Source: a virus
Length of the DNA stretch: 45,385 nucleotides
Virus record (IMG/VR): IMGVR_UViG_3300028886_000153
Coordinates: 1-45,385 of that record
Reading direction: 5' to 3' (one strand)
Numbering within the stretch: the stretch's first letter is position 1; each line of letters begins with the position of its first letter. Both the position numbers and the translations under genes were made by a program. Shown here piece after piece: positions 5,113 through 18,665 of the stretch. Under the pieces are notes generated by a model. It saw nothing but the letters and a program-made list of their open reading frames with translations. It was not told the origin of the DNA and did no database searches.

Positions 5113-6279
5113 ATGAGCTACATCGTAGAGAATCTTTGGGATTGTCAATACTGTGGAACTAAAGGCAATCGCGGTAGGGATTATGTCTGTCCTAACTGCG
5201 GTAAAACTCGTGATGAGAGTGTCAAGTTCTATCTTCCCGACGAAATCACCGAGTATAAAGAGCCCATTGAACAGGGGCCGGATTGGTACTGCCCCTACTG
5301 CAATTCCTACAATCGCCATAGTGTGAACAACTGCGAATGCTGTGGCGCAGAGAGAGGCTCAAAGAATTATTTCGATATTCAAAACTCTCCAGAAAAATTT
5401 GAGAACTACACGGCAAGTGAGAATCTGGAAGATGAAGATGAGTTCACAGAACCTACTTTCATTGAACAGGAATACACTCCCAGACAGTATACGCCCGTAA
5501 AAATTAGTGTTCCACAAACTTATAAAAGATATGAACCGCCTAAGCCGCAGGTGGAAAAGAAGTCCAGAAGAAAGTTTCACTTTACCTGGAAGCGTGCGGC
5601 CGCAGTCCTTCTGCTCCTCGCACTTATCATCACAGGCATCGCGGCGATACCGAGATATAAAAACATTACGGTAAGCGCGCTTGATTGGCAGAGAGAAATT
5701 GACATTGAAACCAACACTCTGGTTCAAGAAGATGATTGGTCGGTTCCTGCGGACGCTGTTGAAGTTCTTTATACACGACAAGAAATTCACCATTATGATA
5801 AAGTTCTTGACCACTATAAAACCGTTACCGAACAGAAATCTCGGCAGGTACAAGATGGTTATGATGTAAGTTATACTTACAGAGATTTGGGAAACGGTTT
5901 TAGTGAGCGTATTGAAAATAAAACTCCGCGTTATCGTACTGAATATTATACCGAAACTCACGAAGAGCCCGTTTATCGCGATGAGCCTGTTTATCGCACG
6001 AAATACTATTACACAGTATGGCGTTACATCTACTCCTATACTGTTACCTCTTCTGGCGATGATACCGTTGAGCCTTATTGGGGTTCCTATACTTTCGTTG
6101 GCGACCAGAGAGAGGGCGGACGGCGTGAAAAATACTCTGTAACCTATCTTAATAAGAAGGATAAAGAGAAAACTGCTATCGCCAATTCTCAAGAAATTTG
6201 GGAGCAGCTGGAAGTCGGTAATAAATACCAAGTCAAAATGTCGCTCAATCGTATTATAGAGGTTAAGGGAGAAGGATAA
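5113..6279 (+). CDS. membrane protein with N-terminal tandem zinc ribbons (CxxC x4), one TM helix and Tyr/Thr-rich C-terminal domain
   Basis: CQYCG..CPNCG..CPYCN..CECCG; hydrophobic AAAVLLLLALIITGIAAI; higher GC, no TAG; contains TGCGGCCGCA at 5595. Confidence 0.7.
   Translation: MSYIVENLWDCQYCGTKGNRGRDYVCPNCGKTRDESVKFYLPDEITEYKEPIEQGPDWYCPYCNSYNRHSVNNCECCGAERGSKNYFDIQNSPEKFENYTASENLEDEDEFTEPTFIEQEYTPRQYTPVKISVPQTYKRYEPPKPQVEKKSRRKFHFTWKRAAAVLLLLALIITGIAAIPRYKNITVSALDWQREIDIETNTLVQEDDWSVPADAVEVLYTRQEIHHYDKVLDHYKTVTEQKSRQVQDGYDVSYTYRDLGNGFSERIENKTPRYRTEYYTETHEEPVYRDEPVYRTKYYYTVWRYIYSYTVTSSGDDTVEPYWGSYTFVGDQREGGRREKYSVTYLNKKDKEKTAIANSQEIWEQLEVGNKYQVKMSLNRIIEVKGEG
5595..5604. repeat. TGCGGCCGCA palindrome copy 3
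   Basis: exact 10-mer. Confidence 0.9.
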
Positions 6280-6291
6280 AACCTTCTCCCT
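6268..6291 (+). terminator. rho-independent terminator (GGGAGAAGG-loop-CCTTCTCCC); TAA stop of upstream gene lies in loop
   Basis: 9-bp perfect stem followed by TTGATTTTT. Confidence 0.6.
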
Positions 6292-6319
6292 TGATTTTTA
6301 TAAAAAATTATTATATAAT
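6291..6319 (+). promoter_or_regulatory. consensus promoter cassette P3
   Basis: TTGATT 6291-6296, 17-nt spacer, TATAAT 6314-6319. Confidence 0.65.
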
Positions 6320-6340
6320 ATATATAGAAAATAAGAGGAG

Positions 6341-16335: not shown

Positions 16336-16898
16336 CAAGCGATTGGCACTTCGGCCATGATCGCGAGTTCATCTGGAAAGCCCGCGGTTTCAGCTCTGTT
16401 GACGCCATGAATGATAAGATTATCAAGGCGCATAACTTTGTTGTCGATCCCGACGATGATGTGTATGTCCTCGGTGACCTTATCCTGGGCGATTCCGCTA
16501 AGGGTCTTGAGTGCTTGAGAGCGCTCAATGGTAAACTGCACATTGTTCGTGGTAACCACGATACCGACAGCCGATGGGCCGCATATGCGACTTTGCCGAA
16601 TGTCGTAGAGCAAAACAACGTCATTCTGCTCAAGTTCAGAAAGCACAACTTCTATATGAGCCATTATCCCACGCTGACTGGCAATCTGGAGAAGGAAAGT
16701 CTGAAACAGATGACTCTCAACCTGTTCGGCCATACTCACCAGAAGAGCAACTTCTATATGGATATGCCATATCTTTATCACGTTGGTGTAGATTCGCATG
16801 ACTGTTTTCCCGTGAAGCTGGAGAATATCATTGGCGAAATGTATGCCAAGGTGGACGAATGTAAGGAGTTCCTCGATGAATCGAGCGAAGAAGAGTAG
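16317..16898 (+). CDS. calcineurin-like metallophosphoesterase (putative 2',3'-phosphatase partner of the kinase); ends at TAG, or extends to about 17114 if TAG is read through
   Basis: DWHFGHD, GDLILGD, GNHD, GHTHQ motifs; GGAAAGGAGATATCCGTATG RBS; ambiguity described in findings. Confidence 0.6.
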   Translation: MAATWVTSDWHFGHDREFIWKARGFSSVDAMNDKIIKAHNFVVDPDDDVYVLGDLILGDSAKGLECLRALNGKLHIVRGNHDTDSRWAAYATLPNVVEQNNVILLKFRKHNFYMSHYPTLTGNLEKESLKQMTLNLFGHTHQKSNFYMDMPYLYHVGVDSHDCFPVKLENIIGEMYAKVDECKEFLDESSEEE

Positions 16899-17175
16899 AA
16901 AAAACCTGTCGTGGCAAGCAGCCCGGCAGAAGATAACAGATAGGCTATTCTTTCCGTCAAACAAGCAATGCAATTATATAAATTATAGAATTGCGACAAA
17001 TGCGTTTGGCAAGGAAACGAATGTCCTGGGCCAACCCCATGGAATCCCCCAAGTTGCCCACACGGACTCAATTTTAAGCGTGATCCACCAGATGGTGGAT
17101 ATTATGGATAAATTAGGTTGTAATGATCTTGAAGCATTAGTACATGAATATGTAAATACTTTAATCAATAATTAA
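16876..17175 (+). CDS. hypothetical protein (TAG-free frame overlapping the MPE tail)
   Basis: frame free of TAG/TAA/TGA with helical C-terminus; ends TAA 17173-17175 just before next RBS. Confidence 0.35.
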   Translation: MNRAKKSRKNLSWQAARQKITDRLFFPSNKQCNYINYRIATNAFGKETNVLGQPHGIPQVAHTDSILSVIHQMVDIMDKLGCNDLEALVHEYVNTLINN

Positions 17176-17201
17176 AATTAAATATAAAAGGAGAAAAGAA
17201 G

Positions 17202-18665
17202 ATGTTAAGTGCTATTTTGCCGTACCTTCCGTTCATTCTGATTGCCATTGTGGTAATCGCCGTTCTCTGTAGTGGTTATGTTAAGGCTCCGCCTGATATG
17301 GCCTACATCATTTCCGGTCTCCATAAAAAGCCAAGAATTTTGATTGGTAAGGCCGGCATTAAAGTACCTTTCTTCGAGCGAATTGATAAGCTCTCTCTTG
17401 GCGCAATTCAGATTGATGTTAAGACTGGTTCCGCCGTTCCTACCGCAGAGTATATCAACGTGAGAGTTGACTCCACAGTCTCCGTGCGCGTGGGCCGTAC
17501 CGATGAAATGATTGCGCTGGCTGCACAGAACTTCCTCAATGTGGGACGAGATGAAATTGCGCGAAAGATTAACGACCTCCTGGAAGGTAATATCCGTGAA
17601 ATCGTCGGCCAGATGAAGCTGACCGAAATGATTGGCGACCGCAAGAGTTTCTCTGAAAAGGTGCAGGAGAACGCTGTTCCCGACCTTGCCAGATATGGTC
17701 TTGAACTGATTACCTTCAACGTGCAGAACTTCGTTGATGACAACGATGTTATCACCAACCTGGGTATTGACAACGTGGCGCAGATTTCCAAGAACGCTGC
17801 CATCGCCCGTTCCAATGCGGAGCGTGAGGTTGAGGTCGCCAAGGCCGAGAACGCAAAGCAGGCAAATGACGCTAAAGTCAAGGCTGCTGAGGAAATCGCC
17901 AAGAGAAACAACGACCTCGCCATTCGCCAGGCTGAACTCCAGAAGGCTGCGGATACCGAGAAGGCTCGTGCTGAAGCGGCCAAGAGCATTGAGGCCGAGA
18001 ATCAGCGTAAGCTGAAGGACGTTGCCGAGACCGAGGCCAACATCGCCAAGGCTGCCAAGGAAGCTGAACTGCGCCAGAAGGAAGTTGAGCTGAAAGAGTA
18101 TGAGCTGACTGCGCTCGTGCGCAAGCAGGCTGATGCTGACAAGTACGCTCAGGAGAAGGCCGCTGAAGCGAAGATGATTCAACAGCAGAGAGAGGCTGAA
18201 GCTCGCGCTTACGAGCAGGTGAAGAAGTCTGAGGCTGCGAAGCGTGCGACCGAGCTTGAAGCGGAAGCACGTAAGTTGCAGGCAGATGCTGATAAGTATG
18301 CGGCGATGGCTGAGGCGGAAGCTATTCGCGCGAAGGGCGAAGCCGAAGCTGAAGCAATTCGTATGAAGGGTGAAGCTGAAGCTATCGGTATTGAAAAGAA
18401 GGCCGAAGCTCAGAAGAAGATGTCTGATGCATCTGTGATTGAAATGGTAATGAATGCATTGCCAAAAATTGCAGAAAATGTTGCGGCTCCTCTTGCAAAT
18501 GTAGATAAAATCACAATGTATGGAGAGGGCGGTTCTACTAAACTTGTTGGCGATATTATTACCAACACGAGCCAGATTTTTGAAGGAGTTAAAGAATCTA
18601 CTGGATTAGATTTGAATACTCTTCTTGCTGGATATCTTGGTGGCAAAGCCGTAGATAAAACTTAA
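17202..18665 (+). CDS. flotillin-like SPFH/band-7 protein with N-terminal TM and EA-rich coiled coil
   Basis: N-terminal hydrophobic anchor, SPFH core, long AEAxAxAEA repeats, as in bacterial FloT/YqiK; AAAGGAGAAAAG RBS. Confidence 0.75.
   Translation: MLSAILPYLPFILIAIVVIAVLCSGYVKAPPDMAYIISGLHKKPRILIGKAGIKVPFFERIDKLSLGAIQIDVKTGSAVPTAEYINVRVDSTVSVRVGRTDEMIALAAQNFLNVGRDEIARKINDLLEGNIREIVGQMKLTEMIGDRKSFSEKVQENAVPDLARYGLELITFNVQNFVDDNDVITNLGIDNVAQISKNAAIARSNAEREVEVAKAENAKQANDAKVKAAEEIAKRNNDLAIRQAELQKAADTEKARAEAAKSIEAENQRKLKDVAETEANIAKAAKEAELRQKEVELKEYELTALVRKQADADKYAQEKAAEAKMIQQQREAEARAYEQVKKSEAAKRATELEAEARKLQADADKYAAMAEAEAIRAKGEAEAEAIRMKGEAEAIGIEKKAEAQKKMSDASVIEMVMNALPKIAENVAAPLANVDKITMYGEGGSTKLVGDIITNTSQIFEGVKESTGLDLNTLLAGYLGGKAVDKT

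Follow-up and report, generated by a model that had tools for sequence, protein, structure and literature searches.

Why do some genes of a phage that reads the amber codon TAG as an amino acid use this codon freely when others lack it altogether? We addressed this question in a 45,385-nucleotide stretch of viral DNA (IMG/VR record IMGVR_UViG_3300028886_000153, positions 1 to 45,385; hereafter the window), in which higher-GC genes without internal TAG, most of them clustered at 5113-18665, stand among AT-rich genes with up to eight TAGs each. An initial annotation, made from the letters alone, offered two explanations: TAG-free genes form an early class readable under the standard code while late or lytic genes need a suppressor, or the GC-rich genes were recently acquired from standard-code donors. 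The explanation that we favor, with a probability of roughly 0.7, is that sets of standard-code-readable genes are kept free of TAG for translation before or without suppression.

TAG is a glutamine codon and is unevenly distributed

Fragmented open reading frames (ORFs) in the window fuse into full-length genes once TAG is read as sense, and none of them requires read-through of TGA or TAA. We aligned all window proteins, with an X at each TAG, to 250 related loci (given L numbers below) using tblastn; the in-frame stops within these alignments comprised hundreds of TAGs versus 5 TGAs and about 25 TAAs. In a likelihood test, we set the residues that relatives have at the positions of the window's TAGs against those that they have at positions of each of the 20 amino acids; glutamine exceeded the runner-up, lysine, by 124-328 log-likelihood units, and relatives without any in-frame TAG most often have glutamine at these positions. 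These comparisons show that TAG is decoded as glutamine in the window phage (genetic code 15). A clear case is the YorF-family gene starting at 38371, which had been listed as TAG-free, wrongly: its TAG at 39232 aligns with the conserved Q of the motif KQRQDEYK, upstream of a conserved ...GFNF tail. Alignments of UDG to PDB entries say nothing about the TAG residue, since this TAG lies at a variable position. Six-frame ORF coverage was too noisy to call the genetic code of relatives, and counts of in-frame stops in the tblastn alignments were used instead.

The closest relative of the window phage, IMG/VR contig 3300032030_000014 (89% identical in GyrA and 84% in the MVP-like protein), has, some 6 kb upstream of the gene for its MVP-like protein, two tRNA(CUA) genes (locus L176), one of which shows the U1/G73 acceptor features of phage tRNA-Gln genes. 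Genes for tRNA(CUA) are also present in relatives L182, L221 and L083, and that of L083 matches phage tRNA-Gln(UUG) at 57/76 positions.

The load of TAG differs sharply between gene classes. The higher-GC block, counted together with the MVP-like gene (1815-4229 and 5113-18665), has 4 TAGs in 4,725 codons, all of them terminal: MPE-1 has one as its final codon, directly before TAA, and MPE-3 has three within a C-terminal extension. The seven selfish, endonuclease-type genes have 42 TAGs in 1,927 codons (49 in 2,169 with CxCxCG-4 added), the lysis genes 8 in 787 (14 in 1,575 together with neighbouring genes) and the replication genes 13 in 5,050, with none in LigA, GyrA, DnaB or RNase H. A Poisson model that predicts TAG from GC content at third codon positions (GC3) alone leaves 2.5-fold over-dispersion (p = 3e-8); the fit improves when gene class is included (likelihood ratio (LR) = 40.6, p = 8e-9), and GC3 then contributes little. 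When the comparison is restricted to AT-rich genes (GC3 <= 0.33), TAG accounts for 45% of glutamine-type codons in the selfish class, 23% in the late class and 6% in the replication class (selfish versus replication, Fisher p = 9e-13).

Moreover, six genes are AT-rich yet TAG-free: LigA (GC 0.35, GC3 0.22), GyrA (GC3 0.29), DnaB (GC3 0.31), RNase H, the RlaP-type nucleotidyltransferase (GC3 0.25) and NADAR (GC3 0.28). The initial coupling of higher GC to absence of TAG holds only in part. The heterogeneity in TAG load is real and independent of GC, and the uniform density that correction for GC and length could have produced was not seen in the Poisson model or in the neutral model described below.

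Because CAA, CAG and TAG are joined by single transitions, we modeled their neutral shares from the base frequencies at fourfold-degenerate sites. Observed over expected TAG counts are 49/39 in selfish genes, 14/22 in late genes, 13/58 in replication genes and 4/62 in the higher-GC block. As ratios, they descend from 1.25 in selfish genes through 1.07 in the endolysin, 0.65 in late genes and 0.22 in replication genes to 0.06 in the RNA-repair block. Selfish genes use CAA:CAG:TAG at 52:9:49, versus a neutral expectation of 60:11:39. Higher GC should not reduce TAG use under this model, in which the block's expected TAG share is still about 39%. The replication genes and the higher-GC block are therefore 5- to 15-fold depleted relative to neutrality. 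The endonucleases, at about the neutral level, are simply unconstrained; depletion marks the remaining genes, and the selected trait that needs explaining is avoidance of TAG, not enrichment. The initial view of the selfish genes as the most TAG-dense was correct; its figure of about 1 TAG per 35 codons fits the densest of them (1 per 30-37) and is too high for all selfish genes together (1 per 44).

TAG avoidance across the phage family

We fetched 10 GyrA, 80 RNA-ligase and 80 MVP loci from viral contigs and 80 flotillin loci from genome assemblies, and counted as recoded those loci with at least 3 in-frame TAGs. The comparison covers about 80 independently sampled TAG-recoded relatives. In these relatives, the genes of the block are again almost devoid of TAG, with observed over expected counts of 1/615 for MVP, 0/194 for RNA ligase, 0/153 for flotillin, 0/129 for the nucleotidyltransferase, 0/101 for MPE-1, 0/94 for the PPP phosphatase, 3/90 for MPE-3 and 0/31 for NADAR; GyrA (0/57) and GyrB (0/66) behave likewise. 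Genes that tolerate TAG reach a far larger fraction of expectation in the same loci: 0.53-0.65 for the CxCxCG family, 0.70 for PhoH and 0.83 for the coiled-coil GIY-YIG gene.

Relative L017 provides a natural control. It has the same gene order, and its module has a GC3 of 0.13-0.35, like the rest of that phage, with no TAG; the adjacent PhoH gene has 6. Similarly, MVP orthologues 74-84% identical to that of the window range in GC3 from 0.20 to 0.56, with 1 TAG in seven loci. Since orthologues are TAG-free in AT-rich recoded relatives, neither GC content nor recent import explains the absence of TAG, and TAG-freedom of the same genes whatever their GC requires purifying selection against TAG at the codon level.

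The order of these genes recurs in the family: MVP, small ORFs, nucleotidyltransferase, MPE-1, NADAR, exonuclease, (RNA ligase), PPP, Zn92, Pnk and MPE-3, followed by (flotillin), hyp144, TM91, PhoH, lysis genes, UDG, RNase H and GyrB/A. It is kept in the closest relative (L176 and L007), L017, L047/L178, L008 and L013, and so in recoded and standard-code relatives alike. The standard-code relatives L013-L015, whose GyrA is 58% identical to that of the window, share the gene order yet have no in-frame TAG, endonucleases included. On these comparisons, the code change arose within the window phage's own family.

These data bear on the second of the initial explanations, that the GC-rich block was recently imported from standard-code donors and has not yet ameliorated to the phage's composition. 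The compositional step is substantial: GC is 0.39-0.53 in the block versus 0.26-0.40 elsewhere, and GC3 of 0.37-0.62 is far above the 0.10-0.33 of the backbone. The window's ligase, Pnk and MPE-3 genes, moreover, lie at the top of their families' GC3 range (window ranks: RNA ligase 84/85, Pnk 90/90, MPE-3 71/71, PPP 61/64), and the RNA ligase of L018, a relative that is richer in GC and nearly free of TAG, is 80% identical to the window's and has a GC3 of 0.59. Against import, the block is a syntenic core module that is shared with the closest relative and with standard-code relatives, it is TAG-free where AT-rich (L017), the AT-rich LigA, GyrA and DnaB are equally TAG-free, and the block contains the family's own promoter elements. 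A search for close cellular homologues of the block found none; its flotillin is about 50% identical to chromosomal flotillins of Clostridia, and identities of 68-73% were found only in contigs of rumen metagenome-assembled genomes (MAGs), several of them TAG-recoded themselves. The base composition itself also looks like codon preference, as the rise in GC3 replaces A-ending codons with C- and G-ending ones and leaves the share of T-ending codons at about 0.4. We therefore regard recent import as improbable and, as a cause of the absence of TAG, as largely refuted.

The higher GC3 of the block is instead a separate, lineage-specific feature, and partly a family-wide codon preference. For the MVP-like gene, flotillin and two small ORFs, GC3 is similarly high in the closest relatives. 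Four genes prefer CAG over CAA throughout the family (986:138 in MVP, 250:44 in flotillin, 270:116 in RNA ligase, 34:8 in the YorF-family gene). This preference, together with the loss of A-ending codons at a constant share of T-ending ones, suggests that the high GC3 reflects codon choice and not a symmetric compositional shift. Related, GC-richer phages may also have contributed by exchanging parts of the module. A chimeric assembly as the origin of the GC jump was rejected, as independent assemblies and relatives span its junctions.

A probable need for translation before or without suppression

The explanation that we favor would work as follows. Early in infection the host apparatus would be unmodified, with release factor 1 still terminating at TAG, and the purged genes would be translated before the phage's suppressor tRNA(CUA) accumulates. 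Only genes not needed before or without suppression would then be free to use TAG neutrally, as a synonym of CAA and CAG. Two gene sets are kept purged by strong selection: an RNA-repair and counter-defence block (nucleotidyltransferase, three phosphoesterases, NADAR, exonuclease, ligase, kinase, MVP-like protein and flotillin) and core replication enzymes (gyrase A and B, DnaB, LigA and RNase H). In lysis and tail-fibre genes TAG reaches 60-100% of the neutral level and in homing endonucleases the full level, and the dense TAGs of the latter would keep them from being made until suppression is active, including those that are first in an operon or borne in intron-like inserts. As the selective agent we infer timing or independence from the suppressor. 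The initial division into standard-code-readable and suppressor-dependent genes gains indirect support from the conserved avoidance of TAG in these genes across some 80 recoded relatives, though as a gradation rather than as two clean blocks.

A number of observations weigh against this explanation. The classes are not only graded but interleaved in one co-directional array, where UDG (2 TAGs) and primase (3 TAGs) lie beside TAG-free DnaB and gyrase and share operons with them. No suppressor tRNA(CUA) was found in the window or in the adjoining 8 kb upstream, together the 53 kb of this phage's DNA that we examined, and no tRNA of any kind was found in the window or in other contigs of the phage. 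In the closest relative, the suppressor tRNA itself sits behind a variant of the early-type promoter. The lysis cluster of the window is preceded, at about 19030 and upstream of hyp136, by a promoter variant with a weaker -35 element (TTGCGT-N17-TATAAT), and in L017, L008 and L047 this cluster follows the module without a promoter of its own. Finally, the counts in relatives include related and a few duplicate loci, so that P values from them are inflated by shared ancestry; the direction is uniform across proteins only 37-89% identical to those of the window. We had considered promoters as a separator of the TAG classes and rejected them, since the lysis cluster also carries a sigma-70-like variant.

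Graded TAG loads would also follow if suppression were incomplete and carried a graded cost, with release factor 1 competing at each TAG and TAG being removed in proportion to the demand for full-length protein, without any early/late switch. The continuum of observed over expected TAG from selfish genes to the RNA-repair block fits this idea, as does the mixing of TAG-poor and TAG-bearing genes in the same operons, and the family-wide preference for CAG in the strictest TAG-free genes (MVP, flotillin and RNA ligase) suggests translational selection. The endolysin and tail-fibre genes, also needed in quantity, are however near neutral rather than depleted. We consider a graded cost on its own rather unlikely, but a serious rival and one compatible with the timing model.

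A weaker rival holds that the TAG-free genes are those used in lysogeny, when no suppressor is active. SPbeta-type phages are temperate, and NADAR, flotillin and the RNA-repair genes could be cargo that protects a lysogen. TAG-free integrases have moreover been reported in recoded prophages (Borges et al., bioRxiv 10.1101/2021.08.26.457843). However, no integrase, repressor or attachment site was seen in the 53 kb examined, and gyrase, DnaB and ligase, which are not lysogeny functions, are equally TAG-free. We judge this account very improbable.

Translation before or without suppression agrees with the model put forward by Borges et al. (2021/2022), in which standard-code-compatible genes are translated early by unmodified host machinery, before suppressor tRNAs build up. 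In the recoded gut and rumen phages of that study, replication and code-change genes are in standard code and lysis and structural genes are recoded, and in Agate phages a group I intron endonuclease within an early gene is preferentially recoded. Like those phages, and also crAss-like and Lak phages, the window family has recoded stops in only some genes, phage-encoded suppressor tRNAs (in relatives of the window phage), and standard-code and recoded members in one clade. It differs in that it is TAG-recoded and SPbeta-like, with contigs of about 120-400 kb, and could be assigned to none of the named clades; in that lysis genes of the window are at the neutral TAG level, not enriched; and in that its strictest TAG-free set is the RNA-repair/MVP-like/flotillin module, which that paper does not discuss and which is unusually GC-rich here. 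The mixed-coding pattern, including the recoded intron endonuclease, is thus already published; new here are that the RNA-repair cassette is free of TAG, that the endonucleases carry TAG at the neutral level and that GC3 of the cassette is unusually high in the window phage. With the same genes TAG-free over a GC3 range of 0.13-0.59 in some 80 recoded relatives, the family offers a controlled comparative case for a standard-code-readable subset, and the ratio of observed to neutral TAG offers a simple quantitative yardstick that shows avoidance as the selected trait.

The strictest TAG-free set may itself be linked to the code switch. By gene content, the ligase, the Pnk-type kinase, three Metallophos proteins and the RlaP nucleotidyltransferase, which are encoded together, form an RNA (tRNA) repair cassette. 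Pnk and RNA ligase 1 of phage T4 form a tRNA-repair pathway, a counter-defence against anticodon nucleases. The window likewise encodes a Pnk-type kinase, phosphoesterases and an RNA ligase together, a likeness in genes alone; its ligase resembles the DRB0094 (Rnl5-like) type rather than Rnl1 or Rnl2, and phosphatase functions would be on separate metallophosphoesterases. For this ligase, TIGR02306 (the DRB0094 model) was the sole NCBIfam match, with a score below the NCBI cutoff. Kienbeck et al. (2024; PMC10879173) describe theta ribozymes at the 3' ends of phage tRNAs, in phages many of which use code 15 with suppressor tRNAs, and report for these phages a 140-fold enrichment of "RNA ligase, DRB0094 family" and a 250-fold enrichment of a tRNA nucleotidyltransferase. 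The window resembles them in its DRB0094-like ligase and Pol-beta-type nucleotidyltransferase and differs from them in that a search for theta/HDV-like (hepatitis delta virus-like) ribozymes found none in the window; the sole HDV-like Rfam match, to the CPEB3 model in relative L032 (7120-7207), is ambiguous.

We tentatively raise the idea, doubtful as it still is, that the cassette, taken together with the exonuclease, is part of the code-switch machinery and heals, matures or repairs phage tRNAs, the amber suppressor among them. It could remove the 2',3'-cyclic phosphate left after ribozyme processing of tRNA 3' ends or repair damage by host anticodon nucleases. Service to the suppressor tRNA would give a direct reason for the cassette to be readable without it, and the high GC3 and preference for CAG could then mark an immediate-early set tuned to the host apparatus. 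In this respect the cassette may be a component of the code switch or may protect it.

About half of the scanned RNA-ligase loci adjoin tRNA arrays. In L079 the array beside the ligase includes a tRNA(CUA) with a long variable arm, probably not of the Gln type, and in distant relatives such arrays also hold a tmRNA, a group I intron and a "drum" RNA (notable RNAs of these arrays are at L079 3137-3227, 474-827 and 4939-5254, L051 1903-2014 and L032 7120-7207).

Gene content and organization of the window

The gene assignments of the initial annotation were confirmed by Pfam, PHROGs and NCBIfam, and we list the features of the window in Table 1. The + strand carries all clear genes except one. 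The AT-rich region encodes PIN-PhoH, an ELLD endolysin, a holin-like protein, UDG, RNase H, GyrB, a GyrA/ParC-type subunit, LigA, thymidylate synthase, the YorF-family protein, an AAA_24 ATPase, DnaB and primase, and the block at 5113-18665 also holds a Zn-ribbon membrane protein and small ORFs.

Table 1. Features of the window, with their in-frame TAGs where counted.
Feature	Position	Strand	Remarks
CxCxCG-1	1097..1810	+	8 TAG; first gene behind promoter 982; PHROG 374/559/9084
MVP-like protein (vault shoulder domain)	1815..4229	+	804 aa; GC3 0.52; 0 TAG in 27 Gln codons
CxCxCG-4	4255..4983	-	7 TAG; = L001 12438-13166
Higher-GC block	5113..18665	+	no internal TAG; interrupted by AT-rich CxCxCG-2
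RlaP-type (Pol-beta-type) nucleotidyltransferase	7718-8569	+	
CxCxCG-2	8619..9521	+	inside higher-GC block; GC3 0.19; 5 TAG; L207 orthologue 10 TAG
MPE-1 metallophosphoesterase	9505-10380	+	ends TAG-TAA
NADAR	10364-10843	+	
DEDD exonuclease	11010-11843	+	
DRB0094-like RNA ligase	11860-13050	+	PF09414; TIGR02306-like
PPP phosphatase	14529-15311	+	
Pnk-type kinase	15838-16335	+	AAA_33 / Pnkp-kinase-like domain
MPE-3 metallophosphoesterase	16317-17111	+	
MPE-3 read-through extension	16896..17111	+	TAGs 16896, 16941, 16986 in linker to Cys-rich C-terminal domain
Flotillin	17202-18665	+	
Two strong terminator-like hairpins	18673-18704, 18921-18951 (18673..18951)	+	close block after flotillin
AT-rich TAG-containing cluster	19094..23939	+	hyp136, hyp144, TM91, PIN-PhoH, endolysin, holin-like, hyp123
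PIN-PhoH	20253-21506	+	2 TAG
Endolysin (ELLD)	21552-23201	+	6 TAG
Holin-like	23206-23553	+	1 TAG
UDG and RNase H	24054..25452	+	2 and 0 TAG
GIY-YIG-1, free-standing	25566..26342	+	7 TAG; first gene behind promoter 25449
gyrB, two exons	~26332-27852 and 28928-29329 (26332..29329)	+	1 TAG
GIY-YIG-2, in gyrB insert	28062-28775	+	2 TAG
GyrA/ParC-type subunit	29510-31858	+	AT-rich; 0 TAG in 14 Gln codons
NAD-dependent ligase LigA	32331-34259	+	AT-rich; 0 TAG in 19 Gln codons
Coiled-coil + GIY-YIG protein	34885..35913	+	7 TAG; DUF4041-GIY of the initial annotation
YonG_N-like ORF and thymidylate synthase, one frame	35910..36980	+	ORF ends TAG 36186; synthase ATG 36198
CxCxCG-3	37430..38356	+	8 TAG; GC 0.26
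YorF-family (SSB-like) gene	38371..39303	+	TAG 39232 = Gln codon; does not stop at 39234
AAA_24 ATPase, YorH-like, DnaB, primase	39400..45218	+	
DnaB	41085-42557	+	0 TAG
Primase, two exons	42769 to ~43566 and ~44602 to 44934	+	3 TAG
GIY-YIG-3, in primase insert	43741-44478	+	5 TAG
Sigma-70-type element TTGATT-N17-TATAAT-atatata, eleven copies	982, 5056, 6291, 10964, 15313, 24001, 25449, 32277, 34510, 36958, 40428 (982..40456)	+ only	predicted promoter

The sigma-70-type element, predicted from sequence, is about 45 nt long and nearly invariant, and all copies are intergenic. It heads eleven operons, among them every operon of the TAG-free block and those of the replication genes, and a conserved promoter element precedes the same operons in relatives.

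Several boundaries in the initial annotation need adjustment. The range 5113-18665 given there itself includes the TAG-dense CxCxCG-2 gene, and the MPE genes are free of internal TAG apart from the three in the C-terminal linker of MPE-3, with MPE-1 ending in TAG-TAA. The C-terminal domain of MPE-3 (CDKCV...KRDPPDGG[YF]YG) is conserved in the closest relative (L006), and other MPE-3 orthologues, of about 186-206 aa, stop at the place of the first TAG; a short form would be made without suppression and a long form with it. The YonG_N-like ORF and thymidylate synthase are fused only if the TAG between them is decoded, and in L006 they are in different frames. Gene callers that apply one code to a whole contig will mis-call this junction, the MPE-3 extension and the conserved tail of the 38371 gene.

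In the CxCxCG family, classed in PHROGs as HNH or homing endonucleases, a fourth member, CxCxCG-4, had been missed initially. The coiled-coil GIY-YIG gene keeps its position in relatives, with 4-8 TAGs in recoded ones and 0 in standard-code ones. Two further GIY-YIG genes, GIY-YIG-2 and GIY-YIG-3, lie in inserts that interrupt gyrB and primase: the gyrB insert of 1.08 kb starts at 27853-27927 and runs through 28927, and the primase insert spans about 43567-44601 (about 1.05 kb). Removal of the inserts seamlessly restores gyrB (...DADV|DGAHI...), as in the uninterrupted L006 gene, and primase (...FEGE|KSCLL...), matching uninterrupted orthologues. The Rfam group I ribozyme model RF00028 gave no match around GIY-YIG-2 or GIY-YIG-3 at the gathering threshold or at E <= 1. 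Divergent group I introns are one possibility for the inserts, and self-splicing elements of a different type are another.

In the closest relative, two LigA genes lie side by side (L006 12522-14486 and 14542-16446). One is 62% identical to that of the window and TAG-free; the other is 30% identical, with a GC3 of 0.12 and 8 TAGs.

Pfam matches to YorF, YorH and YonG_N point to a large, SPbeta-like lineage for the window phage. Bacillus phage SPbeta uses the standard code. The window shares these Pfam families and a similar replication module with SPbeta, and differs in that megablast of the full window against INPHARED phages found no similarity at the DNA level. The window phage probably comes from a rumen or gut sample, and we can only guess at its host, perhaps a rumen member of the Oscillospiraceae or Ruminococcaceae.

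The MVP-like protein, with homologues at 80 viral loci (39-84% identity), and flotillin are conserved across a large family of phage contigs of about 100-400 kb. Four contigs from "Mollicutes", "Clostridium" and "Clostridia" MAGs (L101, L102, L105 and L108) encode a flotillin of the phage type (60-71% identical) and have phage genes with several in-frame TAGs; they are probably mis-binned phage contigs.

Copies of the window sequence, 99.9-100% identical, are present in ENA, Logan and JGI assemblies, and one assembly (L001) runs 8 kb further upstream. This upstream region (L001 1-9091, minus strand) encodes tail-fibre-like proteins and a glycosyltransferase/UDP-glucose dehydrogenase fusion. 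It is not collinear with the closest relative, whose tRNA cluster occupies that place, and 23 of its 98 glutamine-type codons are TAG, the level of the lysis cluster.

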